From Candidatus Shapirobacteria bacterium (GTDB taxonomy: Bacteria; Patescibacteriota; Microgenomatia; UBA12405), in the NCBI GenBank assembly GCA_041661765.1, contig JBAZTV010000003.1, positions 1,064-65,063 of the forward strand: 64,000 bases of DNA, read 5' to 3'. How positions within the stretch are numbered: the first letter of the stretch is position 1; every line of letters begins with the position of its first letter. The translations under genes were made by a program, and so were the position numbers. This document shows positions 6,408 through 64,000 of this stretch, piece by piece. The notes beneath the pieces are model-generated. The model was not told the DNA's origin and ran no database searches. It saw only the letters and a program-made list of their open reading frames with translations.

Positions 6408-7237
6408 TACTGTATTAATTTTACAATTAAATCTCCCCACCACCAAGCCACCAAAATTCCTAAAATCATAAACGGACCAAAAGGGACTTGTGTTTTCCTA
6501 TCCGCTTTTTTAAAAATCATCAATATTAACCCCAAAATTGCCCCAACAACAAAAGCCACATAAAAGGCTATTATCGTTTTAGGATATCCTAAAAACAATC
6601 CCATAAACAAAGCCAACTTAACATCTCCCATCCCCATTCCACTACCTTTAGTTATCAAATTTAAAATTAATAAAAACCCACTAGCCACCAACGCTGATAG
6701 TATTTGTTGTAAGGGCAGACCGATGTGTCTGCCCCACATATCGCCCAGCAGAAAAACAATTGCACATCCAATTAAAATTACTGTCGAAAAATCCGGCAAA
6801 ATCATATATTTTAAATCAAATACCGCACTAAAAACCAAGAAAACAATAATCAAAAAACCTAAAATTAACTGTAGTAGAGACGTTGCATGCAACGTCTCTA
6901 CGAAATTAAACCTAAAAACTAAAAAAAACAATACAAATAAAATCCCCATAACTAATTCCACAACAGGGTAGGAGAGTGGTAATTTTTTATAGCAACATTT
7001 TGTTTTACCTTTTAAAATCAACCAAGAAATCACTGGCACATTTTCATACCAATTCAATTGTCTACCACAATAATCACAAAACGATCTTTTCTCATTTATG
7101 TAGGGGCTAACCCTTGTGTCCGCCCTTTTAATTTTTAAAATTTTATAATTTACAGCCGTCCTATAAACCAACATATTCACAAAACTCCCAAAACATAAAC
7201 CCAAAACAAAAATAATAATTCCAATTAACATTTCCAT
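6407..7237 (-). CDS. pilD: Prepilin peptidase (A24 family, PilD-like) with an in-frame REP-like palindrome insertion
   Basis: N-terminal CDYCGRQ...C..KCC zinc-binding motif, multiple TM helices, GMGDVKL motif; insertion encodes VETLHATSLLQ. Confidence 0.8.
   Translation of the reverse strand: MEMLIGIIIFVLGLCFGSFVNMLVYRTAVNYKILKIKRADTRVSPYINEKRSFCDYCGRQLNWYENVPVISWLILKGKTKCCYKKLPLSYPVVELVMGILFVLFFLVFRFNFVETLHATSLLQLILGFLIIVFLVFSAVFDLKYMILPDFSTVILIGCAIVFLLGDMWGRHIGLPLQQILSALVASGFLLILNLITKGSGMGMGDVKLALFMGLFLGYPKTIIAFYVAFVVGAILGLILMIFKKADRKTQVPFGPFMILGILVAWWWGDLIVKLIQ
6874..6901 (+). repeat. REP-like palindrome GTAGAGACG-ttgcatgcaa-CGTCTCTAC, in frame inside pilD
   Basis: Perfect 9-bp stem with terminal GTAG/CTAC; same family as 15872, 33299, 41917, 41995, 63605. 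Confidence 0.8.
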
Positions 7238-7276
7238 ATCTCATTCTAACAAAAATTAAAGGCTTCTCCCTTTTTT

Positions 7277-7315
7277 AAGGGGAGATGTCCCGATTTATCG
7301 GGACAGAGAGGTTTT
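7277..7315 (+). repeat. G-rich hairpin element copy R5 (AAGGGGAGA-TGTCCCGATttATCGGGACA-GAGAGGTTTT), intergenic between pilD and pilA
   Basis: Same as R4 but with a compensatory C/G to T/A change that keeps the stem. Confidence 0.75.
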
Positions 7316-7323
7316 CTCCAATC

Positions 7324-7349
7324 AAAAACCCCGCCATCAAGCGGGGTTT
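7324..7349 (-). terminator. Rho-independent terminator hairpin AAACCCCGC-catcaa-GCGGGGTTT downstream of the major pilin gene (palindromic, could act bidirectionally)
   Basis: 9-bp GC-rich stem; T-run follows on the minus strand. Confidence 0.6.
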
Positions 7350-7371
7350 AAAGTTTATTCTTAATTCTTTA

Positions 7372-8088
7372 TTAAGGAACACATTTAAACAAAGATGTTG
7401 CAACAGTTTCAAAATCCCATGGAGATACAGGATAACCAGTAGTTTGGTCAAACACTGCAGCATCAGTATTAATAACTCTAGTTAAAGAAGTTACATTTGC
7501 ACCAGTCATAGTAGGTTTATAAAGTACAGTATCAACTGTACCAGCTCTATTTGCTTTTGCCTTCGGGATATAACAAACAAGAACTGAATTACCCTCCGCA
7601 GTCCCAAGCTTATTAATAACCAAATAATTAGTTCCATCATCAACAAATTTGGGATCAGCACTAGAAAGTGAAGTATATCCCTTAATCAAAAATGAATCTT
7701 TTAACTCATCCTTTACTACTAAAGCCCCCCGTTGATTATAACTACTACACAAAGAAGTAGGAGTTTGTAAAAGAGGGTCAATGCTATTAGTAGAACATAA
7801 ACCAGCTCCCACCATATTACTAGATCCAACCCATGCAGTATCAGCAGAAGCGACCGCACCACTATTAGTGTCCATCCAAGGATAAGTAAATTTAACAGTA
7901 TAATACCTTTCATAAGCATTCATAACTTCAGCTGCATCATTCTGTGCAGTCGCATCCTTCGCCTTATTCGATTGTTCAATTGGATTAATAGTCGCCAACA
8001 CAGCCACCGACAAAATTGCAATCAACGCTATAACAATTAAAAGTTCCACTAAGGTAAAACCTCTCATTTTACTTATCTTATTTTTCAT
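7372..8088 (-). CDS. pilA: Major type IV pilin (PilA-like), leader MKNKISKMRG|FTLVELLIV
   Basis: Canonical prepilin motif; largest pilin; followed by its own terminator; immediately downstream of pilC. Confidence 0.7.
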   Translation of the reverse strand: MKNKISKMRGFTLVELLIVIALIAILSVAVLATINPIEQSNKAKDATAQNDAAEVMNAYERYYTVKFTYPWMDTNSGAVASADTAWVGSSNMVGAGLCSTNSIDPLLQTPTSLCSSYNQRGALVVKDELKDSFLIKGYTSLSSADPKFVDDGTNYLVINKLGTAEGNSVLVCYIPKAKANRAGTVDTVLYKPTMTGANVTSLTRVINTDAAVFDQTTGYPVSPWDFETVATSLFKCVP

Positions 8089-8166
8089 TTATTTTAATAA
8101 ATATTTAATTCTATTTAATTCATTATTCACCACTAAAATTACGATGTCAAGTTGTTGTTTTTTAAA

Positions 8167-9378
8167 TTACATACTCGATGTCAAATTATAGATTGGCATC
8201 AAAACCGCCACCACTAAAAAAGCCACACCTATCCCCAACAAAATCATAATTATCGGCTCAATTGCTGAAGTCAATGATTTAACCGATTGTTCCGCCTCAG
8301 CCGAAAAATAATCTGATACTTTTAAAAGTACACTATCTAATTTTCCCGTTGCTTCGCCTGTCGCCACCATCTGGTTTACAATTACCGGAAAAACTCCTGT
8401 TTCTTCAAAAGAATTCGCAATCGAAAAACCTTTTTGAACTCTTTCAGATATTTTTAAATACGCCCCTCTAAAAAGTTCATTTGCCGACACACTTGAAACA
8501 ATTCTTAAAGCATCAACTAAAGAAATTCCTGCCGATAAAAGCATTGACAAAGTCCTAATAGTATCTGCCAAAACAGTTTTTTGGCTTAAGGGTCCGATAA
8601 TTGGAATTTTTAATTTATAAATATCCACCTTTAATCTAAACTTAGCATTTCTATCTCCAATCTTAAAAAGTACAAAAAAACCAAAAATTAAAAATGGAAT
8701 TAAAAACCAAAATTTAACTATAAAATCAGATGTTGCCATTAAGGCTTGGGTTGATGCTGGCATTTTTGCATCAAAATCCTCATACAAAGACATCATTTTT
8801 GGAATCACAAAAATCATCATTATAATAACCACAATAATCATACCTACAACCACAATTGCCGGATAAATCATTGCTCCTTTAACCTTACCGGAAAATTCAT
8901 TTTGTTTTTCCAAATTATCAGCTAATTTAACCAATACTTCCTCCAAAACCCCACCTTCTTCACCAGCTTCAATCGAAGCAATATATGCCTCACCAAAATT
9001 TTTTTTATACCTTCCTAAACCATCTGCCAAAGTATGCCCTCCTTGAACCGTTGCCAAAGTATATTCCAAAATTTCAAACATCAAGCTTTTTTTATCAGAT
9101 TGACTTTTCAAAAGCGATAAAGCATCGGTTAAAACTAGACCAGAAGTCATCATTGTTGATAACTGTCTAGTAAAATTAGTAATTTGTTTCAAATTAATTT
9201 TTGAAAAAATCTTTTTATACATCTCATTTATAATCGAAGTACTTTCAACAACTACCGACAATGGTACTAACCCTCCACCTTTTATTGATTCCACAGCTGA
9301 ATTCTTGTCTTGCGATTCCAAAAACCCCTTAATTGTTTTTCCATTCCAATCTTTAGCTTTATAAAAAAATTTCGTCAT
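8167..9378 (-). CDS. pilC: Type IV pilus platform protein PilC (GspF family)
   Basis: 403 aa; duplicated GspF domain; three TM segments. Confidence 0.8.
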   Translation of the reverse strand: MTKFFYKAKDWNGKTIKGFLESQDKNSAVESIKGGGLVPLSVVVESTSIINEMYKKIFSKINLKQITNFTRQLSTMMTSGLVLTDALSLLKSQSDKKSLMFEILEYTLATVQGGHTLADGLGRYKKNFGEAYIASIEAGEEGGVLEEVLVKLADNLEKQNEFSGKVKGAMIYPAIVVVGMIIVVIIMMIFVIPKMMSLYEDFDAKMPASTQALMATSDFIVKFWFLIPFLIFGFFVLFKIGDRNAKFRLKVDIYKLKIPIIGPLSQKTVLADTIRTLSMLLSAGISLVDALRIVSSVSANELFRGAYLKISERVQKGFSIANSFEETGVFPVIVNQMVATGEATGKLDSVLLKVSDYFSAEAEQSVKSLTSAIEPIIMILLGIGVAFLVVAVLMPIYNLTSSM

Positions 9379-10442
9379 ATTTTTTGACGTCCTAATTTAC
9401 CCTGTAGTTCAATTGCATTATTTGCATAAGTCATGGCCACTTCTTCCGAAACTTTTCCTTCCAAGACCAATTTAGCCATATATGCATCAAAACTTATCAT
9501 CCCAATATCAGCACCAGTCTGAATAATATTATCAATCATAAAAGATTTTCCTTCCCTTATTACATTTCGAACCGCCGGTGTGGCAATTAAAATTTCAAAA
9601 ACAGGAATTCTACCACCAGCAATTGCTGGCACTAATCTTTGAGAAACAATTGCTGTAATTACTGTTGCCAACTGAACTCTGATCTGATCCTTTGATCCAA
9701 TTGGAAAAACATCCACAATCCTATCAATTGTCTGTGCCGCTGAATTTGTATGTAAAACCGAAAAAACTAAATGTCCTGTTTCAGCAATCGTTAAAGCCGA
9801 AGACGTCGATTCTAAATCCCTCATTTCACCTAAAAACACCACATTTGGATCCTGCCTTAAACAAGACCTTAATGCTAAACCAAAACTATTTGTGTCTCCC
9901 CCCATTTCTCTTTGTGAAATTATCGCTTTTTCTGGCTTAATTAAATACTCAACCGGATCCTCAATCGTCACAATATGCCCACCCTTAGTCCTATTAATTT
10001 CCTCCAGTATTGCCGCCACTGTCGTTGATTTACCATGTCCAGTTGGACCAGTAACTAATATAAAACCTTGTTTATATTTAATAAAATCTCTTAAAATACT
10101 TGGAATACTTAATTCCTCAAAATCAGGTATTTTTGAAGAAATTAACCTCAAAGCACAAGCAGGGTCACCTTTTTGTAAATAAACATTCGCCCTAAAACGA
10201 ACCCCAACTGCCTCAAATGAAAAATCCAATTCTTTTTCTTTTTTAAAAATTTCTAATTGTTCCTCATTTAAAAGCGATAAAACCATTTCCATTATTTCTT
10301 TATTCGTTGTTTTTTCAAAACCAAACACATTTAAAAGCTCTCCATCAACCCTAATTTTTGGAGATACGTCTGAAATTAAATGAACATCCGAAGCCTTATA
10401 ATCAACTGCATATTTTAAAATTTCCTCCATTTTTATGTTCAT
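9375..10442 (-). CDS. pilT: Type IV pilus retraction ATPase PilT
   Basis: 355 aa; Walker A GPTGHGKST; PilT/GspE family architecture. Confidence 0.75.
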   Translation of the reverse strand: MNIKMEEILKYAVDYKASDVHLISDVSPKIRVDGELLNVFGFEKTTNKEIMEMVLSLLNEEQLEIFKKEKELDFSFEAVGVRFRANVYLQKGDPACALRLISSKIPDFEELSIPSILRDFIKYKQGFILVTGPTGHGKSTTVAAILEEINRTKGGHIVTIEDPVEYLIKPEKAIISQREMGGDTNSFGLALRSCLRQDPNVVFLGEMRDLESTSSALTIAETGHLVFSVLHTNSAAQTIDRIVDVFPIGSKDQIRVQLATVITAIVSQRLVPAIAGGRIPVFEILIATPAVRNVIREGKSFMIDNIIQTGADIGMISFDAYMAKLVLEGKVSEEVAMTYANNAIELQGKLGRQKI

Positions 10443-10460
10443 ACTTTTGTTTTTAATTTT

Positions 10461-12200
10461 TTAATATTGAGCAACTCTAATAACTTCATCCATACTTGTC
10501 ACTCCTTCTAAAACCTTTACATATCCATCTTCTTTCATTGATAACATTCCTTCTTCCATCGCCAATCTCTGGATATCTGAAGCCGACGCTTTACCAACTA
10601 TTAACTTACTTATTTTTTCACTAATCGGCATCACCTCATAAATAGCAATTCTTCCTAAATATCCAGTATTATTACATTTTTCACAACCAACAATTTTAGG
10701 CAACATCATTTTCTTTCCTTCTTTTTTAAATTTATCCTCAATCATATTATAAATAGGACCCAAAGTTTTTTTAAGTTCTTCTAATTTATCTGGCGGTATT
10801 TCCATTTCACTTACACAAGTTTTACAAACTTTTCTTAAAACTCTTTGCCCCACCACACAATTCAAAGACGATACTAATAAAAACGGCTCCGCTCCCATAT
10901 CTAAAAGTCTTGGAGGCACACCTGAAGCGTCATTAGTATGTAGTGTTGAAAAAACTAAATGACCAGTCAAGGCAGCATTAATAGCCAAATCTGCCGTTTC
11001 TGAATCACGAATTTCTCCCACCATAATTATGTTAGGATCTTGACGTAAAAATGATCTCAACGCCGAAGCAAAAGTCAAACCAGCCTGGACATTCACCTGA
11101 ACCTGATTTACACCTTTCATTTGATATTCCACTGGATCCTCAACTGTCACCACATTAACCTTCGATGTTGCCACAATATCTAAAATCGAATATAAAGTTG
11201 TTGTTTTACCAGATCCAGTTGGACCACAAATAATAATAATTCCATGAGGTCTCTGAATCGCATTCATTAAATTTTTTAAAGCCAATCCTCTCAGCCCCAA
11301 ATCTTGCAATGTTGGCACTTTTTGAGATTTTTTAAGTAAACGCATAACCACTTTTTCACCGTAAGTTGTCGGTAAGGTTGATATACGTAAATCAACATCA
11401 TTACCATCAGTCGTAAAGAAAAATCTTCCGTCTTGAGGTATTCTTTTTTCATCAATTTTTAAACCAGACAAAATTTTAATTCTTGATATTACCGCGTCAT
11501 GAACGTTTCTTGGTAATAAATATTTTTCCTGCAAAATTCCGTCAATTCTATACCTAATCCTAACACTATCTTCCTGTGGTTCAATATGAACATCAGAAGC
11601 TCTTGATTTAACAGCGTATTCCAAAATTGTTGTTACTATTTTCGATACTGGTGCTTCTACTGTCACTTTTTCTTCAGCTAATTTCATTATTTTTTCTTCA
11701 TCTTTTCTTTCATCCAAAGCCCTTGTCACCTCTGAAGTAATATTTTTCTCCCTGATATATTTTTCTTTAACGAAAGAAACAATCTGTTTTTCCAAAGCAA
11801 TTGCAACACCCACTTTTAAACCCGTTTTCTTTTCTAAAAATTCAATAGTCTCCAAATCTAACGGATTAACCATGGCCACTGACAAAATCTTATTCTTTGT
11901 ATCTAGATTATAGGGGACTATTTTATATTTTCGGGCCACACTCTCTGGTACCAAAGTTAAAGCTTCTGGTGAAAATCCAATCGTTTCTAAATCGACAAAT
12001 GGTACTCTTAAAAAATCCGCTTTCGCCTTAATAAAATCTACATCTGAAACAAATCTCAACGCCTTAATTACTTCTTCTTCTGTCTCTCCAGTTTTTAACT
12101 GTCTCAACTTAATTTCCTCTACCTTTTCTTGATTAATTAATCCTTTTTCCAAAAGGACTCCCTTTAAATTCTTATATATTTTTGAGGCAAAATCATTCAT
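10461..12200 (-). CDS. pilB: Type IV pilus assembly ATPase PilB (GspE family)
   Basis: 579 aa; N-terminal GspE_N domain; Walker A GPTGSGKTTT; tetracysteine CKTC...CEKC. Confidence 0.8.
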   Translation of the reverse strand: MNDFASKIYKNLKGVLLEKGLINQEKVEEIKLRQLKTGETEEEVIKALRFVSDVDFIKAKADFLRVPFVDLETIGFSPEALTLVPESVARKYKIVPYNLDTKNKILSVAMVNPLDLETIEFLEKKTGLKVGVAIALEKQIVSFVKEKYIREKNITSEVTRALDERKDEEKIMKLAEEKVTVEAPVSKIVTTILEYAVKSRASDVHIEPQEDSVRIRYRIDGILQEKYLLPRNVHDAVISRIKILSGLKIDEKRIPQDGRFFFTTDGNDVDLRISTLPTTYGEKVVMRLLKKSQKVPTLQDLGLRGLALKNLMNAIQRPHGIIIICGPTGSGKTTTLYSILDIVATSKVNVVTVEDPVEYQMKGVNQVQVNVQAGLTFASALRSFLRQDPNIIMVGEIRDSETADLAINAALTGHLVFSTLHTNDASGVPPRLLDMGAEPFLLVSSLNCVVGQRVLRKVCKTCVSEMEIPPDKLEELKKTLGPIYNMIEDKFKKEGKKMMLPKIVGCEKCNNTGYLGRIAIYEVMPISEKISKLIVGKASASDIQRLAMEEGMLSMKEDGYVKVLEGVTSMDEVIRVAQY

Positions 12201-12221
12201 AGTATATAATCATAATACGCT

Positions 12222-12860: not shown

Positions 12861-12899
12861 TCAATTTCCGCATTTTCCCCTTATTGATTTTTAAAAAAG

Positions 12900-12908
12900 T
12901 GTTATAAT
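12900..12908 (+). promoter_or_regulatory. Extended -10 element TGTTATAAT about 9 nt upstream of the fic ATG
   Basis: TGnTATAAT match; no good -35. Confidence 0.35.
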
Positions 12909-12917
12909 CTTACTTAG

Positions 12918-14083: not shown

Positions 14084-16135
14084 ATGATCAATCTTGATTC
14101 TCCCGAATTAAAAAATATTTCTCCCGAAAAATTGGGTGAACTTCTAATCGAAGCCAAAAAAGCTTACTACACCGACAGCAAGCCCATCATGGATGATCAC
14201 ACCTACGATATTCTCGAAGACATATTGCGAAAAATTAATCCTTATCATCGGATTTTTACTAAAATCGGCAGTTCCCATTTCAATAGCGGTTTTGACAAAA
14301 AAAAGCATTCCATGCCCATGGGCTCCCAAAACAAAGTCAATAAAATCGACGATCTCGTTCACTATTTTGAATTAAAGAAAGTTTTACCCCTCCTTGTCAA
14401 AGGAGGGGATAGGGGTGGATTGGTCGTTCAACCAAAATGTGACGGCATTTCCTTAGAAATTGAATATAAAAATGGTAAATTAGTTGATGCTATCACTCGC
14501 GGCGACGGCGAAATAGGAGATGTTATCACCCAAAATGTTGTCAAAATGAAAAATTTTGTCCAAGAATTCAAGGACAATTTTTCCGGCTCAGTCCGTTGCG
14601 AAATCGTAATGCTCGAAAAAGATTTTCAAAAATTAAATGAAATAATAAAAAACCGCCCTATCTCGGCCACAGGCCGATCCGCCTCTGGCGGAAAGGGAGG
14701 TGTCCCCGCCACAGCGGGGACGGAGGGTTTCTACAGTAACTCTCGCAATGCCGTCTCTGGTATCTCACAGCGCCTTGACGGCAAATTTTCTGAACTCTGT
14801 AGTCTTTATGCTGTCGACATTTATAGCCTCCCTGTCAAGGGAGGTGCCCAAAGGGCGGAGGGTTTCAAAACCGAACAAGAAAAAATTGATTTTCTAAAAC
14901 ATCATGGCTTCACTACTGTTGAAGATCTTCATTGTCAAAATTTTGACCAAATCGAAAAAATCTACCAAGAATTTTTAATTAAAAAAAGAAAAAATTATCC
15001 TTTTGAAATCGACGGTCTCGTCATTAAAATTAACGATACTGAAATACAACATCGTCTAGGTTCTAAAAATAATCGTCCCAAAGGTCAAGTGGCCTACAAA
15101 TTTCCATCTCGCTCCAGTCAAACGAGAATTATTAATATCAATTGGCAAGTTGGTCCAATGGGAACAATTACTCCTGTCGCCGAAGTCGATCCCATCGAAA
15201 TTTCCGGCGCCATCATTACCTTTGCCTCGCTGGCCAATTACGATTTAATCAAAGAAAAAAATATTAATATTAATGACATCGTTGAAATTCAAAGAAGAGG
15301 AGATGTTATCCCTCACATTGAAAACGTCATTACCAAAATTAATCCCGGCCACATCGTCGCTCCCACAGTTTGTCCTTCTTGTGGCACCAAATTAATCATC
15401 GATAATAAATTTTTGCGCTGTCCTAATATTAAAAATTGTCCTACTCAAATTCTCGGTTCTCTTAAATTATTTTGTAGCACTTTAGAAATTAAAGGTATCT
15501 CCGAAAAAACCATCGACAAACTTTATAAAGAAAAATTAATTCGCCTTCCGGGTGATTTTTATGACCTAAAAGTTTCCTATTTTGAAAAACTTTTTGGCCT
15601 TGGCCACAAATCGGGGACCAATATCATTAAAGAAATCCAAAATAAAAGAAAACTATCATTAAAACAAATTTTTGACGCCGCAATTATTCCCAACTTTAGT
15701 TCTCAACGAATTGTTCAACTGATTAATGCTGGTTTCGATACTCCTGAAAAAATTTTAAATATCACCATCGATCAGCTCGAAGCACTTCCCGGAATTCAAA
15801 TTACTTTGGCTAAAAAAATCTATCAAGGCATCCAAGACCGCCGCGATTTTATTATATCCATTCTTGCTCATGTAGAGACGCCCCGCCGGGACGTCTCTAC
15901 ATCAAACAAACTAAACAACCTATCTTTTGCCATCACCGGCGCTCTTAATAAACCCAGAAAAGAAATTGAAGATCAAATCATTTCTCTCGGTGGTCAATTA
16001 GTTTCCTCTATTTCTAAAAATACTAACTATTTGATTACTAACGAAACCGAATCCAATTCCAGTAAATTTTTAAACGCTAAAAAATTTGGAACCAAAATAA
16101 TTTCTGAATCTGATTTTGAATTATTAGCAGTCTAG
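14084..16135 (+). CDS. ligA: NAD-dependent DNA ligase LigA carrying three in-frame repeat-element insertions
   Basis: KxDG adenylation motif (KCDGISLE), Zn finger C..C...C..C, HhH and BRCT regions; insertions SATGRSASGGKGGVPATAGTEGF, PVKGGAQRAEGF and HVETPRRDVSTS. Confidence 0.85.
   Translation: MINLDSPELKNISPEKLGELLIEAKKAYYTDSKPIMDDHTYDILEDILRKINPYHRIFTKIGSSHFNSGFDKKKHSMPMGSQNKVNKIDDLVHYFELKKVLPLLVKGGDRGGLVVQPKCDGISLEIEYKNGKLVDAITRGDGEIGDVITQNVVKMKNFVQEFKDNFSGSVRCEIVMLEKDFQKLNEIIKNRPISATGRSASGGKGGVPATAGTEGFYSNSRNAVSGISQRLDGKFSELCSLYAVDIYSLPVKGGAQRAEGFKTEQEKIDFLKHHGFTTVEDLHCQNFDQIEKIYQEFLIKKRKNYPFEIDGLVIKINDTEIQHRLGSKNNRPKGQVAYKFPSRSSQTRIININWQVGPMGTITPVAEVDPIEISGAIITFASLANYDLIKEKNININDIVEIQRRGDVIPHIENVITKINPGHIVAPTVCPSCGTKLIIDNKFLRCPNIKNCPTQILGSLKLFCSTLEIKGISEKTIDKLYKEKLIRLPGDFYDLKVSYFEKLFGLGHKSGTNIIKEIQNKRKLSLKQIFDAAIIPNFSSQRIVQLINAGFDTPEKILNITIDQLEALPGIQITLAKKIYQGIQDRRDFIISILAHVETPRRDVSTSNKLNNLSFAITGALNKPRKEIEDQIISLGGQLVSSISKNTNYLITNETESNSSKFLNAKKFGTKIISESDFELLAV
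14661..14730 (+). repeat. G-rich element copy R6, long form with two hairpins (CCGCCtctGGCGG and GTCCCCGC-caca-GCGGGGAC), in frame in ligA
   Basis: Its 5' extension is homologous to R9 with a compensatory stem change. Confidence 0.75.
14827..14865 (+). repeat. G-rich element copy R7 (CCTCCCTgtcaAGGGAGGTGCCCaaaGGGCGGAGGGTTT), in frame in ligA
   Basis: Near-identical to R8. Confidence 0.75.
15872..15900 (+). repeat. REP-like palindrome GTAGAGACG-ccccgccggga-CGTCTCTAC, in frame in ligA
   Basis: 9-bp stem with GTAG/CTAC termini. Confidence 0.8.
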
Positions 16136-16264: not shown

Positions 16265-16798
16265 ATGAAACTAATCGTCGGTCTCGGTAACCCAGATAAA
16301 AAATATCAAAACACTCGCCATAATTTAGGCCAAAAAATTATTATTGATTTTGTACGGGCGTGGCGTGACACGCCCTTTATAACCAAATCAAACCTCTCCG
16401 CTCAAATTTACGAAATCGGACAGGGGACTAATAAAACAATTTTTGCCATCCCCACTGAATACATGAACAATTCAGGAATCACCGTCCAAAAAATCTCTCA
16501 ATTTTATAAAATTTCTCCCTTAAATATTTATGTCATCCATGATGATCTTGATTTAGAGGTAGGAGATTATAAAGTTCAATTTGATCGTGGTCCAGCCGGC
16601 CACAATGGCATTAAGTCTATTATTGAAAACTTAGGTACCCAACAGTTTAATCGCATTAGAATCGGTATCGGCAAGTCTCAAAATAATATTCCCGTTGAAG
16701 ACTATGTCCTCCAGCCATTTTCCTCTGAAGAAAAAGATACAATCAATACTCTAACTCCTGAAATATTTGAAGAAATTAAAAATATTTTGGGCTCATAG
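16265..16798 (+). CDS. pth: Peptidyl-tRNA hydrolase
   Basis: N-terminal MKLIVGLGNP...Y...RHN signature. Confidence 0.85.
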   Translation: MKLIVGLGNPDKKYQNTRHNLGQKIIIDFVRAWRDTPFITKSNLSAQIYEIGQGTNKTIFAIPTEYMNNSGITVQKISQFYKISPLNIYVIHDDLDLEVGDYKVQFDRGPAGHNGIKSIIENLGTQQFNRIRIGIGKSQNNIPVEDYVLQPFSSEEKDTINTLTPEIFEEIKNILGS

Positions 16799-27976: not shown

Positions 27977-28007
27977 AAAAACCCTCCGAAATTTCGGAGG
28001 GTTTTTT
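27977..28007 (+). terminator. Rho-independent terminator AAAACCCTCCGAAAT/ATTTCGGAGGGTTTTTT
   Basis: Perfect 13-bp palindrome followed by a T-run, right after the stop of 26896..27963. Confidence 0.8.
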
Positions 28008-30634: not shown

Positions 30635-33283
30635 ATGGCTAGTAATATAGAAGATAAAATCCAAAACAAAACTCCATTTAATATTGGTAAGATTCTTGAT
30701 GTCGATCTTGTTCCTGAAATGGAAAAATCTTACCTCGATTATTCAATGAGTGTTATCGTTCAACGCGCTCTTCCAGACGTTCGGGACGGCATGAAACCGG
30801 TTCATCGTCGCATTATTTACGCCATGAATCAAGCCGGCATGACTCCCAGCAGTAAAAATGTAAAATCAGCCGCTGTTGTCGGTGATGTTTTAAAATCTTA
30901 TCATCCACACGGCGACATGTCTGTCTACATGGCTCTCGTTCGTATGGCCCAAGAATTTTCCCTTAGATATCCTCTGATCAAAGGTCAAGGAAACTTTGGT
31001 TCAATCGACGGCGATCCTCCAGCCGCCATGCGTTACACTGAAGTTAAAATGGATAAACTAACTGCTGAAATGGTCACTGACATCAATAAAAATACTGTCG
31101 AGATGATGCCAAACTACGACGCCTCAACTGAAGAGCCAACTGTTCTTCCAGCTAGAATTCCCAATCTTTTATTAAACGGTGCCGACGGTATTGCTGTTGG
31201 TATGGCCACTCGCATTCCACCTCATAATTTAAAGGAATTATGCCAGGCCATTGATTTTATTTTAGACAAAAGTCGTCTTGAAAGAATCGAATCCGAAGTT
31301 GAAATAAATAATCTTTTAATTCAACCCAAAACCACCATTGATTTAGTTTTAAAACCAATTTACGAACTAGAAAAAGAACATTTTAATTTTGAAACCAGTG
31401 CCACTGTCGAAGATTTAACTAAATTTGTTCAAGGCCCAGATTTTCCTACCTCAGGAGAAATTTACGGAAAAACCGGCATTCTTGAAATGTATGCCACTGG
31501 CCGTGGTAAATTTATTGTTCGCGGTAAAACCAATATAGAAGAAACCAAATCTGGTCGAATTAGAATCATTATTACTGAATTACCTTACCAAGTAAATAAG
31601 GCCGAATTTGTCAAAAAAATTGCTGATTTAGTTCGTGACAAAAAAATAATTGGCATCTCTGATCTTCGCGACGAATCCGATCGTCATGGTATTAGAGTTG
31701 TGGTTGAAATTAAAAAAATCGGCAGACCAAAGTCAGTTTTAAACAAACTCTTTAAATATACCGCTCTTCAATCATCTTATTCAGCCAATATGTTGGCTCT
31801 GGTTGACGGTGTTCCTCAAACTCTCAACTTACGTCAAATGTTACTTCTTTTCCTTCGACATCGAGAAACAGTTATTCGTCGTCGCACCATTTTTGATCTC
31901 AAAGGCATGATGATGCGTTCTCATATTCTCGAAGGTCTTAAAAAAGCACTCGATATCATCGACGAAATTATTAAAACCATTCGTGCTTCAAAAAGTACTG
32001 ATGAAGCTCGAGAAAATTTAATAACCAAATTTGAATTTACAGATCTTCAAGCCAATGCTATTCTTGAAATGCAACTTCGTAAACTCGCCGCCCTCGAACG
32101 TCAAAAACTCGAAGAAGAATTAAAGAATGTATTAGAGACAATCAATGAATTAACCGCAATCATCACCAAACCAGAAATTATGGTTGCTGTTCTAAAAAAA
32201 GAAAACAGTGAAATTATTGAAAAATATGGAGATGTTCGAAAAACTAAAATATTTGTTCGAGGTCTAGACGATTTTAGTGAAGAAGATTTAATTCCAAACG
32301 AAGCCGTTCTTATCGCTCTTACTAAAACAGGTTATATTAAACGAGTTGCCAAAGAAACCTATCATACTCAAAAACGCGGTGGTGTCGGTGTCGTTGGTAT
32401 GACCACTAAAAATGAAGACGAAATTGAATGTATGCTTTCCGTTGACACCCACGATGATCTCTTATTTTTCACCAACCGCGGTCGAGTTTTTAAAACCAAA
32501 GTTTGGGATGTTCAAGAAGGTAGTCGACAAGCCAAAGGTCAGGCAGTCGTCAATTTAATTAATACTATTCAAGGTGAAACTGTTCAAACAATTCTTCCTA
32601 TTAGTAAAAATACTAAAGCTAAGTTTATTTTACTTGCCACAAAAAATGGAGTTGTCAAAAAGACTTCTATTGATAAATTTAAAAATATTCGTCAAACCGG
32701 TTTAGCCGCCATCAAACTCGATCTCAATGATCAACTTACTTGGGCTAAACTAACCGAAGGTGATAACCAAATATTTTTAGTTACTAAAAATGGTAAATGT
32801 ATTCGTTTTGATGAAAGAGATTGTCGACCAATGGGTCGTCAAACTCGAGGTGTTCGAGGCATTCTTCTTAAAGAAGGTGACACCCTAGTTGGTATGGCTG
32901 TTGTCCCCAGTGTTATTGATAAAAAAGAAAAGGGGATTTTTAAACACCTTCTAGTTGTCACTGAAAATGGTGTCGGTAAAAGAACTGATGTCTATCTCTA
33001 CCCTTCCCAAAAACGAGGTGGTATCGGCATTAAAGTTGCCAATCTCAGTGTTAAATCCGGTAAAATCGCCGCCGCTCAAGTCGTTTCTGAAGTTGATGAA
33101 TTAGTTGTTCTTGTTTCCAAAAAAGCTATAACCATCAAACTACCATTAAAAAATATTCCCACCCTTAGTCGTAACACTAAAGGAGTTATCCTTATGCGTT
33201 TCAAATCCACCGATGACAAGCTAAATGCCATGACTATTATTGACAAAAATGATTCCGCCGTGGAAGACGAAAAAATCAAATAA
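30635..33283 (+). CDS. gyrA: DNA gyrase subunit A
   Basis: AMRYTEVKM active-site Tyr region; GyrA-box-like QKRGGVG in the C-terminal beta-pinwheel. Confidence 0.9.
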
Positions 33284-33298: not shown

Positions 33299-33332
33299 GT
33301 AGAGACGGTCCGAAATTTCGGACCGTCTCTAC
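33299..33332 (+). repeat. REP-like perfect 34-nt palindrome GTAGAGACGGTCCGAAATTTCGGACCGTCTCTAC, intergenic after gyrA (probably also a terminator)
   Basis: 17-bp perfect stem with GTAG/CTAC termini. Confidence 0.8.
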
Positions 33333-41635: not shown

Positions 41636-41681
41636 CTTGAAAGTAAATCTATTATCTCACAACCAAAGCTATTTTTTAAGT

Positions 41682-41700
41682 TGTAGAGACCCCCTGTGGG
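41682..41700 (+). repeat. Partial REP (GTAGAGAC + CCCCtgtGGGG hairpin) at the 3' end of the RAYT gene
   Basis: Shares the GTAGAGAC head with the other REPs. Confidence 0.5.
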
Positions 41701-41916
41701 GCAATTTATAAAATTTATCTTTTTGCCAATTAATAGGATTATTGATTATATAATTTTTGATCATTAATAGTTCTTTTTCATCTTTAATGATTTGATCGTG
41801 GAAACGAGGTTGCCAAGCAAACCAAAGATTTTGATGGTTACAAATTGATTTTACTGAAGCTTTAAATAATTTTATAACTCTAGGAATAATCTGATTGGAT
41901 TTAATATTAATTTTTT

Positions 41917-41942
41917 GTAGAGACGCATTGAATGCGTCTCTT
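41917..41942 (+). repeat. REP-like palindrome GTAGAGACGCATT-ga-AATGCGTCTCT inside the RAYT gene
   Basis: 11-bp perfect stem, GTAG head. Confidence 0.8.
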
Positions 41943-41994
41943 GTATTATTATTTGTATTTTGTGTTGAATTATTGTTTGTATCCTGTGTTAGAC

Positions 41995-42019
41995 AGAGAC
42001 GCACACAGTGCGTCTCTAC
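41995..42019 (-). repeat. REP-like palindrome AGAGACGCAC-aca-GTGCGTCTCTAC (GTAG head on the minus strand), inverted relative to 41917; the two form a BIME-like doublet
   Basis: 10-bp perfect stem, CTAC tail on plus. Confidence 0.8.
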
Positions 42020-42350
42020 ATTTGTGTTAAGTGGTTGGTTTTTAATTTGAATTAATATATGCACATGGTTTGGCATAATTACCCATTCATGTAATTTAAT
42101 ATTTTTTCTTATTTTAAATGTTTTTAATAATTCAGATTTAGTAAAAATCACCACGTTTAGATAATTTCATTTTATTATCAATAATTTTTCCAAAAAAATT
42201 ATTATGGTTGTAAGTGCAGATGGTGATGAAATAATATCCAGGGGTGGAATAATTCCAATTTTGAAGACGAGAATATTTTAATTTAAATTTGTCGGCAAAT
42301 TTGGTTGGATTATCGACCACACATTATTGTAACAATTTTTACAAAATAAA

Positions 42351-57129: not shown

Positions 57130-57133
57130 AAAA

Positions 57134-59089: not shown

Positions 59090-59100
59090 TATTTAATTAT

Positions 59101-59129
59101 AACCAAAAAACCCCGCCAATGCGGGGTTT
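59101..59129 (-). terminator. Terminator hairpin AAACCCCGC-caat-GCGGGGTTT (same stem as the pilA terminator at 7324..7349)
   Basis: 9-bp GC stem; T-run on the minus strand. Confidence 0.6.
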
Positions 59130-59140
59130 AAAATTTCTCT

Positions 59141-59170
59141 CAAAAAACAAGTCCCTCTTGTCAAAGAGGG
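59141..59170 (-). terminator. Terminator hairpin CCCTCTT-gtca-AAGAGGG plus T-run, downstream of rpsR
   Basis: 7-bp stem followed by TTTTTT on the minus strand. Confidence 0.6.
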
Positions 59171-59183
59171 ATTTAGGGAGATT

Positions 59184-59435
59184 TTATTGAGTTGTAAAAG
59201 GCAATAAAGCCAAATGCCTTGCTTGTTTAATAGCCTTCATTAATTTTCTTTGATGTTTGGCACAAGTTCCACTAAATTGAGATCCCACAATTCTCGATCT
59301 AGCCGACAAAAATTCTCTCATTTTTTCATAATCTTGCCAAGTCGGAACACTGTTAATTTTACAAAAAGAACAACCTTTCTCTCGCCCTCTTCTTTTTGCT
59401 GCTAATATATTATCTTTTTTACTTTTCTTTATCAT
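59184..59435 (-). CDS. rpsR: 30S ribosomal protein S18
   Basis: CxFC...RxxxG...RRQL-like S18 core. Confidence 0.85.
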   Translation of the reverse strand: MIKKSKKDNILAAKRRGREKGCSFCKINSVPTWQDYEKMREFLSARSRIVGSQFSGTCAKHQRKLMKAIKQARHLALLPFTTQ

Positions 59436-59444
59436 ATCTTCTCC

Positions 59445-59972
59445 TTAAAAAGGCATTTCATCACCTTTCTTTTCTTCAGTAATCAAAATTTCTCCTTCCT
59501 TTTTATTATCATCCACGATTGGAATTTCTCCCAAATCATCCGGAATAACAATATCTTCAATTGGAGACCCTTGGCTTCCAACTGATAAATCTGTACCACC
59601 AAAGTCACCAGAAACATCATGGTCACCAGTATTACCCTTATTATCAAGAATGATCATATCATCAATAATAATTTCAGCAATTTGTTTTTTATTATTCTCT
59701 TGATCAACAAAATCTCTATATTGAATTCTTCCATCAACATAAACTCTTCGACCTTTAGACAAAAGTTGTGAACAAAGCTCAGCCAACTTATTCCAAGCTA
59801 CAATTCGATGAAATTGAGCATCTTCTTTTCGCTCACCCTGCTTAGTTACCCAAACTCTATTGGTAGCTAAACCAAAAGAAACCACCGCCATACCAGCTGG
59901 TGTATATCTTAACTCTGGATCACGAGTTAAATTTCCTATTAACATTACTCTATTGAGACATCTACTTGGCAT
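59445..59972 (-). CDS. ssb: Single-stranded DNA-binding protein
   Basis: OB-fold N-domain (NRVMLIGNLTRDPELRYT); acidic C-terminal tail ending MPF. Confidence 0.85.
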   Translation of the reverse strand: MPSRCLNRVMLIGNLTRDPELRYTPAGMAVVSFGLATNRVWVTKQGERKEDAQFHRIVAWNKLAELCSQLLSKGRRVYVDGRIQYRDFVDQENNKKQIAEIIIDDMIILDNKGNTGDHDVSGDFGGTDLSVGSQGSPIEDIVIPDDLGEIPIVDDNKKEGEILITEEKKGDEMPF

Positions 59973-59985
59973 AAGTTTTCTCCTA

Positions 59986-60276
59986 TTACTTTTTCAAAAT
60001 TAAATAACGAATAACATTTATTTCTCTGTCTAATAAAAGATTAAACTCTTTTATTTTTAAAGTTTCCTTAGATTCCACATCCAAAACCCAAAAATCACCC
60101 TTATTATGATTTTGAATTTCATAAGCCAAATCTTTAAGACCCATGTGATCTTTGTTTAAGATTTCTGCCTTATTGCTTTCTAACCAAGAATAAGCTTTAG
60201 TTAAAACCTTCTCCTTGTCTTCGGTTTTTGGACTTAAAACCAAAATAATTTGATATTGATATTTATTTCCTTTCAT
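59986..60276 (-). CDS. rpsF: 30S ribosomal protein S6
   Basis: Size and position in the rpsF-ssb-rpsR operon; S6-like sequence. Confidence 0.75.
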   Translation of the reverse strand: MKGNKYQYQIILVLSPKTEDKEKVLTKAYSWLESNKAEILNKDHMGLKDLAYEIQNHNKGDFWVLDVESKETLKIKEFNLLLDREINVIRYLILKK

Positions 60277-60314
60277 GAACTAAATAGATTAACATATTAA
60301 GCGCAATTTGACAA

Positions 60315-61715
60315 TTACGTTATTGGTCTTATTTTACAGGTATTTCCTAAATCTTCAACTAGATAACCTTTATTTTTAATAATTTCCCTTAATTTGTCAG
60401 ACTCCGTCCAATTCTTATTCTCTCTTGCCTTTTGCCTTTCATCTGCTAATTTTGCAATTTCTTCCGGAATCTTTTCCTCCTCAACTCTTTTATCTAAATT
60501 TAATCCTAAAACTTTATCAAAATCTAAAATAGTTGCATATCTTTTTTCAAAACTCAAATCTGAGTCTAATAATTCTGAAATAATTGCCAGTACTTCTGGT
60601 ATAGCTAAATCATTACTAATTGCTTCAATAAATCTATTTTTATAATCTTCATCAATAATATCTAAATTTGGTTCAATATTTCCTTTTTTAAAACCTTCTT
60701 TCCATAAAAATAAAATATTTTTTATTTTATTTAAACGATTTTCGGATACTTTTAAATTTTCTAATGAAAATTCAATTCCTTTTCTATAATGAGAACCTAA
60801 CACCATATATCTAAAAGCCATTGGATCAAAACCCATTTCTTTTAAATCAAAAATTGTGTAAAGCCCACCACTCGACTTACTAATTTTTTCTCCTTTAAAA
60901 GAAATAAAAGCATTATGCATCCAGTAATGAGCCGTGTTATGGCCAAAAGCCGCAAAAGATTGAGCAACTTCATTAGTATGATGAACTGGAATATGATCCT
61001 CCCCACCAGTATGAATATCAAAAATATCACCTAAATATTTAGTCGACATGGCTGTGCATTCAACATGCCACCCCGGAAATCCCATCCCCCAAGGACTTTC
61101 CCATTCCATTTGTCTTTTTTCATCCTTGGGACTAAATTTCCACAAAGCAAAGTCGCTTGGATTTTTCTTTTCCTCATTAATTTCCACCCTCACCCCTTCT
61201 CTTATTTTTTTCAAATCTAAATTGGCAAATTTTCCATAATCAATAAACTTAGACGTGTCAAAATAAATTCCATCACTTATTTTATAAGTAAAACCATTAT
61301 TCTCAATTTTTTTGATTAAATCAATTTGCTCCTGAATATGATCTGTTGCTCTTGGCATTTTCCAAGGCAATTCTATATTTAATTCTTTTAAATTTTCCAA
61401 AAATTCATTTTCATATTTCTTAGCAATTTCCCAAACCGTCAATCCTTCCTTTTTAGAACCTTTTTCCATCTTATCTTCACCACTATCCGCATCCGAAGTT
61501 AAATGACCAACATCTGTAATATTTATTACATTATTAACTCTATATCCTAAATACTTAAAAGTTCGCGTCAAAACATCCCAACAAACATAAGCATACATAT
61601 TACCAATATGTGGACTGGAATAAACTGTCGGTCCACAAGAATAAATCCCTACCTCATTTTTTTTAATAGGCTTAAATTCTTCTTTTTGTCTAATTAGAGT
61701 ATTATAAATTTTCAT
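60315..61715 (-). CDS. cysS: Cysteine--tRNA ligase
   Basis: HIGN (SSPHIGNMYAY) and KMSKS-type (KISKSSGG) motifs; zinc-binding Cys. Confidence 0.85.
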   Translation of the reverse strand: MKIYNTLIRQKEEFKPIKKNEVGIYSCGPTVYSSPHIGNMYAYVCWDVLTRTFKYLGYRVNNVINITDVGHLTSDADSGEDKMEKGSKKEGLTVWEIAKKYENEFLENLKELNIELPWKMPRATDHIQEQIDLIKKIENNGFTYKISDGIYFDTSKFIDYGKFANLDLKKIREGVRVEINEEKKNPSDFALWKFSPKDEKRQMEWESPWGMGFPGWHVECTAMSTKYLGDIFDIHTGGEDHIPVHHTNEVAQSFAAFGHNTAHYWMHNAFISFKGEKISKSSGGLYTIFDLKEMGFDPMAFRYMVLGSHYRKGIEFSLENLKVSENRLNKIKNILFLWKEGFKKGNIEPNLDIIDEDYKNRFIEAISNDLAIPEVLAIISELLDSDLSFEKRYATILDFDKVLGLNLDKRVEEEKIPEEIAKLADERQKARENKNWTESDKLREIIKNKGYLVEDLGNTCKIRPIT

Positions 61716-62200
61716 TATTTATCAATTTTACCCTTATATTCACTAGTTTGTGACATTTGAGTCTGGTCGGGTTGTTGTGTTTTTCTTTTATTTCCACCTT
61801 TGTCTTTATGATGTTTCGATGGTTGTATCAATTCAAGATTAGCCATTTGATTTTGTCTTTCCATTTCTCTTTGTCTTTTTAAATTTTCCAATTCAATATT
61901 TCCTTTTTCTTCTTCCTCCTTTTCTTGTTGTCGTCTTAATTTTTCCATTTCATTTTCCACATTTCGTCCTTGTCCGCCAAAACCTTGACGAAGACGAGAC
62001 ATTTCTTCTTGCTTTTTATTTTCATCTTCTGCCTTTCTTTGGGCTATTTCTTGATCATTCAATGGCTTAATATCTCCCAAAAGTTCCCGTGCCGTAATTA
62101 CTGATCCAGCAATTTTCCCCGTTTCTTCCACTAATTTCTCCGCCGTCTCCACCCCTAATTGCCCCAACCCTTTTTTAAAATCATTTATAACCTGATTCAT
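61715..62200 (-). CDS. Hypothetical charged coiled-coil protein
   Basis: Glu/Arg/Gln-rich low-complexity ORF. Confidence 0.35.
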   Translation of the reverse strand: MNQVINDFKKGLGQLGVETAEKLVEETGKIAGSVITARELLGDIKPLNDQEIAQRKAEDENKKQEEMSRLRQGFGGQGRNVENEMEKLRRQQEKEEEEKGNIELENLKRQREMERQNQMANLELIQPSKHHKDKGGNKRKTQQPDQTQMSQTSEYKGKIDK

Positions 62201-62206
62201 AATTTA

Positions 62207-62812
62207 TTATATCTCCCTTCGTCCTTCCATGGCTCTACTCAAAGTTGCCTGATCAGCATACTCCAAATCAGCTCCCATCGGTAAACCGCTACCAATTCGA
62301 GAAATTTTAATATTTTCTTTAGCTAAATTTTCAATTTTTTTCTTAATATATAAAGCCGTTGCTTCACCTTCCATTGTTGGATTAGTCGCCAAAATAATTT
62401 CCATATCGGTTTCAACCCTATTAATAAGTTCTCCAATTTTTAAATCATCTGGACCTACGTGTTCCAAAGGATTCACCACTCCACCTAATACATGATAAAT
62501 ACCATTAAATCCGCCAATTTTTTCAATTGCCATCACATCAATCGCTCTTTCCACTACACAAATAATTTTTCTATTTCTCTTTTCATCTTCACAAATAGAG
62601 CATAACTCTCCCTCACAGACCGAAAAACATTCCTTGCAAATCTTTACTTCTTTTTTGATTGCCAGAAGTGATCTAGCTATTTCCATTACATAAGACTCTG
62701 GAGTATTCAGTAAGTAAAACACCAATCTACTGGCACTTTTAGGCCCAATTCCCGGCAATCTTTCAAACGCCGCAATTAAATTTTTAATACTCTTTGGTAA
62801 TTCTGCTGCCAT
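62207..62812 (-). CDS. recR: Recombination protein RecR
   Basis: HhH N-terminus; C4 zinc finger CKEC...CSIC; Toprim. Confidence 0.85.
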   Translation of the reverse strand: MAAELPKSIKNLIAAFERLPGIGPKSASRLVFYLLNTPESYVMEIARSLLAIKKEVKICKECFSVCEGELCSICEDEKRNRKIICVVERAIDVMAIEKIGGFNGIYHVLGGVVNPLEHVGPDDLKIGELINRVETDMEIILATNPTMEGEATALYIKKKIENLAKENIKISRIGSGLPMGADLEYADQATLSRAMEGRREI

Positions 62813-62820
62813 TAGAAAAT

Positions 62821-63069
62821 TTAAAATAATCCTTCAAGTCCACCCATATCTTTCATTCTTTTCGCCGCCATTTCCTGAGATTTTTTTAAAGCCTTATTAA
62901 TAGTGTCCACTAAGATTTTATTTTCCACTCCATTCACTGACAAAAACTTAATTTTTTGATCTCCAGTTACAACTACTTTAACTCCACTTTCTTCAACTTC
63001 AATTGATTCTGCTTCAATTGCTTTTTTCAATTTATAAGCCTGAGCTAACATTTTTGTTTTATCAAACAT
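62821..63069 (-). CDS. YbaB/EbfC-family nucleoid-associated protein
   Basis: About 82 aa, upstream of recR (conserved dnaX-ybaB-recR order). Confidence 0.5.
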   Translation of the reverse strand: MFDKTKMLAQAYKLKKAIEAESIEVEESGVKVVVTGDQKIKFLSVNGVENKILVDTINKALKKSQEMAAKRMKDMGGLEGLF

Positions 63070-63116
63070 AATTTAAATTAATTTTTAATTTTCTCTATTA
63101 TAACTTAAAAAATAAA

Positions 63117-64000
63117 TCAACCGAATATCTCTTTTGCCACATCATAAATGTCTCCACCACCAGCTTTGTCACCTTTATTCTCCGCCAACTGATCACTAAC
63201 GCATTCCATTGGTGTATCGTTTTTAATTACTAACGGTTGTCTTTTATTTTTTGCTAAAACACATTCAAAACCCAAATCCACTCCAAAAACCTTAGAAATC
63301 CCCTCTTCCACTATTTTTCTATTTTTACTTTCTTCCAATCGATCTTTATGAAACGGATAAAAAACTTCCAACAATAAAATATTTCCCTTAATTGATTTTG
63401 GTTTAGTTGCTCTCAAGAACGCTTCAACTGCATAATTAAACGGTTTAACCGCCACCAACAAACTTCCCCATTTTTCCTCTATTGTTTCCAATTCCAAAGA
63501 ACAAATATGTTGTGAATCTTGCATAGATGCATTGCAAGGTGTCTCTATAATTTCTACTTCATTTACAATCTGCCTTACAGTTTCCTTTTTATCCGTTTTT
63601 TTTTGTAGAGACGCCATGCTTGGCGTCTCTACCTCAGTAATAATAATTTTTTCATCAATTTCTGATTTTTTTTTAAAATTTTCTTGACTGCGATTTGTCT
63701 CCCCAAATTCCACCACTGCCAATTCCATTGGCAATTGATCAATTTCCACATCTTTTTCAATTTTAGATGCCTTCACTAAAAGATTCATAAAAAATTCCGA
63801 TTCTTCTAAATTAACTCCACCCATTTTTTTCTCTCCAATTCCATAAAACGCCAGAATTTTTTTTTGAAAAAAAATCATTAATTTCAACCTAAAACTAGAA
63901 AAATCCACTCCGTCAGTTGCCATTTTTTCCAACTTTTCTAAAATTAACTTTATCTCTCCATTATTCAAATCTTTATCAAAATCTTCCTCATTATAACTAC
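63117..64000 (-). CDS. Partial gene (5' end off window, in frame to position 64000); possibly the C-terminal part of DnaX. Contains one intact and one degenerate in-frame REP
   Basis: Synteny with ybaB-recR; ORF-track start is a TTG and the frame stays open upstream. Confidence 0.35.
   Translation of the reverse strand, partial: SYNEEDFDKDLNNGEIKLILEKLEKMATDGVDFSSFRLKLMIFFQKKILAFYGIGEKKMGGVNLEESEFFMNLLVKASKIEKDVEIDQLPMELAVVEFGETNRSQENFKKKSEIDEKIIITEVETPSMASLQKKTDKKETVRQIVNEVEIIETPCNASMQDSQHICSLELETIEEKWGSLLVAVKPFNYAVEAFLRATKPKSIKGNILLLEVFYPFHKDRLEESKNRKIVEEGISKVFGVDLGFECVLAKNKRQPLVIKNDTPMECVSDQLAENKGDKAGGGDIYDVAKEIFG
63523..63548 (+). repeat. Degenerate REP remnant ATAGATGCATTGCAAGGTGTCTCTAT (compare the 6874 copy)
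   Basis: Loop ttgcatgcaa-like and eroded stem. Confidence 0.4.
63605..63632 (+). repeat. REP-like palindrome GTAGAGACGCCA-tgct-TGGCGTCTCTAC, in frame inside 63117..64000
   Basis: 12-bp perfect stem with GTAG/CTAC termini. Confidence 0.8.

Follow-up and report, generated by a model that had tools for sequence, protein, structure and literature searches.

GTAG-type REP palindromes carried in frame inside protein-coding genes of a Candidatus Shapirobacteria genome

A 64-kb stretch of a metagenome-assembled genome (MAG) of Candidatus Shapirobacteria, a lineage of the Candidate Phyla Radiation (CPR), contains a family of short palindromes of the GTAG type of repetitive extragenic palindrome (REP), and most of its copies lie inside genes. 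Within this stretch, referred to here as the window (G+C content ~32%, coding density ~90%), the family occupies five loci. Four of these are intragenic and break no reading frame—in the genes for the prepilin peptidase PilD, the DNA ligase LigA, DnaX, and a protein resembling the REP-associated tyrosine transposases (RAYTs)—and the fifth follows gyrA. The host open reading frames (ORFs) are open throughout and recognizable domains flank each copy in one frame; the copies sit in loops and linkers, their presence varies among orthologues, and a RAYT-like gene with the same repeats is at hand. We consider it very likely that these are RAYT-mobilized REPs that the host proteins tolerate as short peptide insertions, in frame, within hypervariable loops and linkers, at sites that are used repeatedly.

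Each element is a GTAGAGACG...CGTCTCTAC palindrome with a variable self-complementary core, 27–34 nt in length except for the copies in the RAYT-like gene, which are 25–26 nt. The exact 9-mer GTAGAGACG is present as ten arms forming five inverted pairs (6874/6893, 15872/15892, 33299/33324, 41917/42011 and 63605/63624), against 0.11 expected from dinucleotide shuffles of the 64 kb, and 17 matches are found against 3.3 expected if one mismatch is allowed. Folding of the copies as single-stranded DNA gives z-scores of −5.9 to −9.2. Perfect G+C-rich stems of at least 7 bp number 20 in the window and about 1.5 in shuffled sequence, and because the window is only ~32% G+C these hairpins are conspicuous. 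The family therefore shows what defines a GTAG REP/RAYT system—a stem-loop palindrome of 20–40 nt with a terminal GTAG, repetition well above chance, and a gene for a RAYT (a Y1 HUH transposase, frameshifted in the window) with the same REP—with the exception of a mainly extragenic location, as four of the five loci are inside ORFs. The window and related CPR loci together (868 kb) hold 33 intact copies. Searching Rfam at gathering thresholds returned only three tRNAs across the window and no match at the palindromes, and inspection of the flanks by eye gave no convincing shared target motif. An assembly artefact was rejected, as the same elements are present in many independent assemblies. 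The conserved arms contain GAGACG/CGTCTC, which we take to be the site of the type IIS enzymes BsmBI and Esp3I, with two inverted sites per REP; this is probably a coincidence.

The pilD gene (6407..7237, minus strand) encodes a protein with an A24_N_bact domain (PF06750) at residues 11–107 and a Peptidase_A24 domain (PF01478) at residues 129–237. Its 28-nt GTAGAGACG REP (6874..6901), read on the minus strand as VETLHATSL(LQ) within the segment FNFVETLHATSLLQLILGF, falls in the loop that joins these domains, a hypervariable region of 0 to ~17 residues. The GTAGAGACG REP is present at this position (site 1) in none of 18 PilD orthologues and in neither of two related loci, L201 and L202; both loci have other GTAG-type palindromes at exactly this place, read as IGRPQESPLQ and VGAIHELPLL. 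A second in-frame palindrome, GGGCAGAC..GTCTGCCC (6713..6734, read WGRHIGLPLQ), is a degenerate GTAG-type REP, and L202 has a perfect GTAGGTACGCGCCATGGCGCGTACCTAC at this second site. Different GTAG-type palindromes are accordingly found at both positions, three at site 1 in three relatives and two at site 2, and the site 1 copy is best described as a replacement within a hypervariable linker, not as a clean alignment against an empty site. The gene lies in a cluster resembling those for type IV pili and type II secretion (724–12200) that includes N_methyl pilins, and the syntenic loci L200–L202 hold T2SSE and T2SSF genes. Two small palindrome families, TGTCCCGA..TCGGGACA (7286–7305 and 6366–6385) and AAACCCCGC..GCGGGGTTT (7326–7349 and 59108–59129), are intergenic, beside pilD and other genes, and the latter looks like a terminator.

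LigA, the NAD-dependent DNA ligase (14084..16135, plus strand; TIGR00575, 458.5 bits), carries its 29-nt GTAGAGACG REP, which has a 1-nt bulge, at 15872..15900. It is read as VETPRRDVST within the segment ILAHVETPRRDVSTSNK, in the linker between the helix-hairpin-helix (HhH) region and the BRCT domain, and the BRCT domain (residues 606–676) is encoded 3′ of it. Public databases contain a LigA protein identical to that of the window under Candidatus Shapirobacteria. Comparison with about 120 orthologues (65–88% identity) shows four insertion hot spots, at window residues ~100 (site A), 190–213 (site B), 250–258 (site C) and 597–607 (site D, that of the 29-nt REP). Baseline orthologues, including relatives at ~80% identity, are short at these places and lack the inserts, and palindrome-encoded inserts appear in various lineages. 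Among 120 orthologues the GTAGAGACG REP is carried by 9 at site B, 18 at site C and 23 at site D, and parsimony on a neighbor-joining tree requires 7, 14 and 18 changes, respectively, so that the distribution is patchy. At site D the REP starts at the same Val codon in all 23 carriers, with differing cores, and decayed REPs have been kept in place in the LigA genes of L002, P0032 and P0103. Copies at sites B and C are clear presence/absence indels; site D is a replacement within a hypervariable linker.

The other LigA sites of the window are occupied by different elements. Site A has the second-family palindrome CCCCTCCTTGTCAAAGGAGGGG (14387..14408, read PLLVKGG), found in 5 of 120 orthologues and with a related intergenic copy at 3809–3830; site B has a composite G+C-rich palindromic insert (14657..14735, read PISATGRSASGGKGGVPATAGTEGF / GGKGGVPATAGTEGF) that corresponds to a 21-aa gap against the LigA structures 1dgs and 2owo; and site C has a second-family palindrome (14827..14870, read LPVKGGAQRAEGF) where relatives have the GTAGAGACG REP in the RD..VST frame. 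The window LigA was modelled with AlphaFold2 (mean pLDDT, the per-residue confidence score, 81.5), and residues 192–214, 254–256 and 603–606, at sites B, C and D, are coil with pLDDT below 50; for LigA this is in line with the suggestion in an earlier note on this DNA to see whether the insertions fall in surface loops. This second, non-GTAG family (CCCTCC..GGAGGG) is G+C-rich and often followed by a small hairpin and GGAGGGTTT; it is in frame three times in LigA and intergenic, followed by T-runs, at 3809–3830, 27982–28001 and 59152–59171, with 3 strict matches against 0 in shuffles.

The site D copy is far better conserved than the gene around it. All 29 nucleotides are identical in the window, L200 and L201, and one base differs in L005; ligA itself is 79–82% identical among these four at the nucleotide level overall and 59–66% identical at third codon positions. 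L202, the closest relative (86% nucleotide identity), has another variant, GTAGAaACGCCAGATCTGGCGTCTCTAC, at the same position. Since the 29-mer is identical despite the divergence of ligA, and since different GTAG-type palindromes are found at one PilD position among relatives, we suggest as a secondary hypothesis that REPs may be renewed or exchanged at fixed sites by gene conversion or site-specific re-insertion, a process compatible with the tolerance of in-frame inserts. The hairpin itself may also be under selection.

The ORF at 63117..64000 (minus strand), which is cut by the window end, had been only tentatively called the C-terminal part of DnaX; a Pfam DnaX_C match at residues 168–254, the NCBIfam model PRK14950, and full-length homologues that are gamma/tau proteins of ~500 aa settle this identity. 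Its 28-nt REP (63605..63632, read VETPSMASLQ within the segment ITEVETPSMASLQK) is located in a hypervariable acidic linker ahead of DnaX_C (domain V) and is peculiar to the window: none of the 69 homologues listed has it, including the nearest at 79% identity. A decayed copy in the same gene (63521..63548, read IETPCNASMQ) is shared with a single relative, P0122, which reads IETHHDASLQ there, and the folding z-score near 63523 (−1.7) is not significant.

These comparisons support most of what the earlier note had claimed for the intragenic copies. The frames are preserved, with domains on both sides in the same frame in PilD, LigA and DnaX; the peptides are VETLHATSLLQ, VETPRRDVSTS and VETPSMASLQ as it had stated, with the degenerate IETPCNASMQ; and REP-free relatives lack the REP peptides, whose presence there it had named as the sign that the segments were native sequence. 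Its expectation that orthologue alignments would show lineage-specific indels holds for DnaX at 63605, the sole one of the three flagged copies with a simple presence/absence pattern, whereas the LigA and PilD positions are recurrent hot spots.

Of the three frames of the palindrome, two are free of stops (VET....SL and xRD....VST) and one contains TAG. The window copies all use the VET....SL frame, as do all copies at LigA sites B and D, and 14 of the 18 carriers at LigA site C use the xRD....VST frame. RAYT homologues (P0241–P0360; the 119 nearest with a recognizable HUH motif) include 73 in the VET frame, 32 in the RD frame, one with both, and 13 with a 27-nt double form. The consistent Val-Glu-Thr reading described in the earlier note is thus correct within the window and fails as a rule, given LigA site C (14/18) and the RAYT homologues (32/119). 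Selection on the VET frame itself was considered and rejected, the other open frame being common in relatives and four of four in the window giving p ~0.06 when two frames are allowed. No long ORF uses the TAG-containing frame. Because both stop-free frames are in use among relatives, the frame appears to be dictated by the codon phase at each site, the TAG frame alone being excluded, which is the signature expected of translated sequence, and the inserts are most likely translated as peptides of ~10 residues (VETxxxxSL or xRDxxxxVST).

The RAYT-like gene (41669..42320, minus strand) matches Pfam Y1_Tnp (ORF 41669–42154) and has homologues named RayT; its match to NCBIfam REP_Tyr_transpos (51.7 bits) falls short of the cut-off of 80, owing to the interruption of the gene. 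In a three-frame translation the N-terminal ~45 aa (KYSRLQNWNYSTPGYYFITICT...) are in a different frame from the HUH-containing ORF, with the shift at a run of five T (GGTGATTTTTAC) near 42150 (~42140–42160, minus strand), and this copy is either a pseudogene or the product of a homopolymer sequencing error. Past the HUH motif and ahead of the C-terminal YIINNP helix are two REPs, with minus-strand readings: one at 41994..42019 (VETHCVRL), ~11 aa past the HUH motif, and one at 41917..41941 (RDAFNASLQ). A degenerate REP (GTAGAGACCCCCTGTGGGGCAA) is at the 3′ end of the ORF (41683..41704). The earlier listing of this gene among the in-frame hosts accordingly stands as far as the REPs are inside the ORF, and is weakened by the frameshift in the T-run upstream of them. 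The pair at 41917–42019 is the only one in the window with the doublet arrangement of a REPIN, all other copies being singletons; its minimum free energy structure is one long hairpin (−21.6 kcal/mol), and its centroid structure has two separate hairpins.

A REP-encoded peptide is found 4–40 aa past the HUH motif in all 119 of the nearest RAYT homologues, in either frame, which indicates that the DNA palindrome recurs and not a peptide motif. Eight RAYT genes were available with their DNA: five have internal and flanking REPs (L018, L031, L091, L133 and L157, including Bacteroidota and Balneolia) and three have flanking REPs only (L092, L114 and L150). At L031, three REP copies of one REPtron, flanking and internal, share one core. 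The L150 locus (a Paludibacteraceae MAG) has a related REP, GTTGAGACGC.CGGCCGTGCGTCTTTAC, repeated six times in tandem, 57 nt apart and directly 3′ of the RAYT gene (5272–5584). The literature searched, whose coverage is incomplete, yielded no description of a REP inside a RAYT ORF. The RAYT of E. coli binds the REP hairpin and cleaves at GTAG, and by analogy the RAYT here may do the same.

The copy at 33299..33332, a perfect 34-nt REP (17+17), begins 15 nt past the stop codon of gyrA (30635–33283), between convergent genes. A terminator consensus scan finds 15 pairs followed by ATATTTTATT, a G+C-rich hairpin with a T-rich tract behind it, downstream of gyrA, and this copy is predicted to be the gyrA terminator; the perfect palindrome noted previously is confirmed, and the possible terminator role is supported by the scan. 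The LigA gene of L074 contains the identical 34-mer in frame, read there as VETVRNFGPSLH.

We suggest that REPs of this family would be mobilized as single-stranded hairpins by a RAYT, of which the window holds a degenerate gene. The genome is gene-dense and ~32% G+C, and therefore most landing sites would be coding. Surviving copies would be those that avoid the TAG frame, whose total length change keeps the downstream frame, and that lie in a hypervariable loop or linker; the PilD inter-domain loop, the LigA HhH–BRCT linker and the DnaX linker before domain V would be such tolerated places. Such sites are reused, being occupied in relatives by further variants of this REP, by other GTAG-type REPs or by the unrelated G+C-rich palindrome family, and some copies decay in place to ordinary linker sequence.

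Several observations weigh against this interpretation. Translation of the inserts is deduced from sequence, and the single RAYT that the window holds appears to be inactivated. Elements of 28 or 29 nt are not in frame by themselves, and therefore extra changes must have occurred. None of the three flagged copies aligns with a REP-free relative as a clean insertion of a REP and nothing else; the REP-free L048 has 7 residues at LigA site D, against 9 in the window. Conservation of the LigA REP far above the background of its gene is not predicted by pure neutral tolerance. Finally, the window's five loci are too few to distinguish an excess of intragenic copies statistically from what a coding density of ~90% would give.

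One considerably less probable alternative is that selection keeps the intragenic palindromes for some role of the DNA or the RNA, with active renewal in place through gene conversion or site-specific re-insertion. They might serve as binding sites for the RAYT, with autoregulation through the REP in its own ORF as one case, as points of mRNA processing or of ribosome pausing at domain boundaries, or as integration targets that can be used again. Identity of the 29-nt LigA REP in the window, L200 and L201, at 59–61% identity in third codon positions, would fit such maintenance, as would the different variant that the closest relative, L202, has at that LigA position, the variety of GTAG-type palindromes at the two PilD sites, the REP past the HUH motif in 119 of 119 RAYT homologues in either frame, which indicates that the DNA palindrome is conserved, and the core common to the flanking and internal REPs of the L031 REPtron. 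However, many orthologues have no palindrome or a decayed one at these sites with their genes intact, and some RAYT genes of other phyla (L092, L114 and L150) have no internal REP; the linker location is predicted equally by tolerance, and homogenization by gene conversion would give conservation without function.

Tolerance of mobile REPs is also to be set against the proposal that the segments are native, fast-evolving linkers that are palindromic by chance. REP-bearing and REP-free linkers are of similar length at LigA site D and PilD site 1, as this would have it, but the 9-nt head with a perfect inverted partner at five window loci (0.11 expected) and in at least 120 stretches from many phyla, the identical 28–34-nt variants in unrelated genes and intergenic DNA (the gyrA 34-mer and the L074 LigA copy), and the clear presence/absence indels of the DnaX copy and of LigA sites B and C make it exceedingly improbable. 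Also highly doubtful is that the palindromes are cut from the transcript or skipped by the ribosome and are absent from the protein: stable mRNA hairpins can be processing sites, and nothing more direct speaks for it, whereas the TAG frame is never used in long ORFs, as expected of translated sequence; exact removal of 28, 29 or 34 nt would shift the frame; and read-through keeps the BRCT, Peptidase_A24 and DnaX_C domains in frame.

Beyond the window, the exact GTAGAGACG-N10-CGTCTCTAC element is present in at least 120 contig stretches; Bacteroidota, Cyanobacteria, Chloroflexi, Acidobacteria, Spirochaetes, Planctomycetes and others are represented among the matches listed. By a crude measure about two-thirds of the copies among these matches are in stop-free stretches of fewer than 150 codons, and these are probably intergenic. 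The same REP is also in frame in ORFs of up to 1188 codons (L140 at 3387, L103 at 6096 and L135 at 5862, in MAGs of Bacteroidota or Ignavibacteriota type), adjoining sequences that resemble the C-terminal sorting domain of the type IX secretion system (...YPNPT..., ...NPNPF...), which suggests that the linker before this domain is another tolerated site.

Gene order from the pilus cluster through ligA to pth (peptidyl-tRNA hydrolase, 16265–16798) is kept in related Shapirobacteria contigs. In the window, pth has an in-frame, degenerate GTAG-type palindrome (16356..16375, read VRAWRDTPF), and GTAGAGACG REPs are found in the ORFs at the pth position of L003 (6790), L009 (10055), L031 (7557), L074 (551) and L202 (12391); pth is annotated as such in L202, and in the other four its identity is taken from position after ligA and length (171–184 aa). 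The peptide GAWRDTPF is also seen at LigA site C of P0010.

The element is close to the REPtron and REPIN systems, reportedly described by Nunvar (2010), Bertels and Rainey (2011), Ton-Hoang (2012) and Messing (2012), with which it has in common a 5′ GTAG that is conserved, hairpin formation, a high copy number, and one Y1 HUH transposase gene with the same repeats. It differs in that REPs and REPINs of the classical kind lie outside genes, on the flanks of the RAYT gene, whereas the copies here are largely intragenic singletons, and in that the RAYT gene has one or two internal copies just past the HUH motif.

The likeness to Rickettsia palindromic elements (RPEs) drawn in the earlier note is sound as to behavior, since these REPs are inserted in frame at loop or surface positions with domains kept, and does not extend to membership of the RPE families. 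RPE-1 is ~100–150 bp in length, much longer than the REPs described here. RPEs are likewise in-frame palindromic repeats that add peptide segments to probably functional genes (Ogata et al. 2000, as cited in PMC3733652), but RPE-4 and RPE-6 are CGTC-tagged (PMC3733652), the head here is GTAG, and the sequences are unrelated. The hosts differ too, an obligate intracellular alphaproteobacterium for RPEs and Ca. Shapirobacteria for these REPs.

Di Nocera, De Gregorio and Rocco (2013, BMC Genomics 14:522; PMC3733652) reported GTAG and CGTC REPs within known genes in several phyla, with an excess of intragenic REPs in replication and repair genes. Their cases include a REP within the Opitutus terrae DNA ligase and Xanthomonas recB, where differing REPs occupy approximately one site; they also equate RPE-4 and RPE-6 with CGTC REPs. 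The elements described here resemble theirs in being short GTAG-tagged, RAYT-associated palindromes inside known genes without disruption; that study also includes cyanobacterial REPs, GTAG-12, GTAG-15 and GTAG-16. The present elements differ in their CPR host, which is outside the 2013 coverage, in being mostly intragenic, in having several palindrome families per hot spot, and in the REP within the RAYT ORF. The literature searched, the coverage of which is incomplete, contained nothing on REPs in Patescibacteria/CPR and nothing more recent on GTAG REPs within genes. The in-frame REPs are thus a new host and a richer example of a phenomenon already described in other phyla; to our knowledge, three leads are undescribed: the CPR host with multi-family hot spots, the apparent swapping of REPs at given sites, and the REP that this RAYT clade carries inside its gene.

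In-frame decoration of proteins by REPs is hereby extended to the Candidate Phyla Radiation, whose small gene-dense genomes leave little intergenic room and in which such elements are found in LigA, DnaX, PilD, Pth and other proteins. Part of the lineage-specific variation in CPR protein length is therefore traceable to repeats, and VETxxxxSL or xRDxxxxVST in annotations is a mark of repeat DNA and not a conserved protein motif. The reuse of hot spots and the conservation of the LigA copy offer a concrete system for the question of gene conversion versus site-specific re-insertion, and the REP past the HUH motif in all of the nearest RAYT homologues is a lead on how the linkage of RAYT and REP persists. 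It is conceivable, though we think it rather unlikely, that the positions concerned, in essential genes and the RAYT gene alike, are fixed docking sites open to reuse, where hairpins are repeatedly exchanged or renewed through RAYT-mediated re-insertion or gene conversion. If so, the internal REP of the RAYT gene would serve the system itself, for example in autoregulation or as a protected master copy, and REP turnover would be a built-in source of loop and linker diversity in the proteins of a reduced genome.

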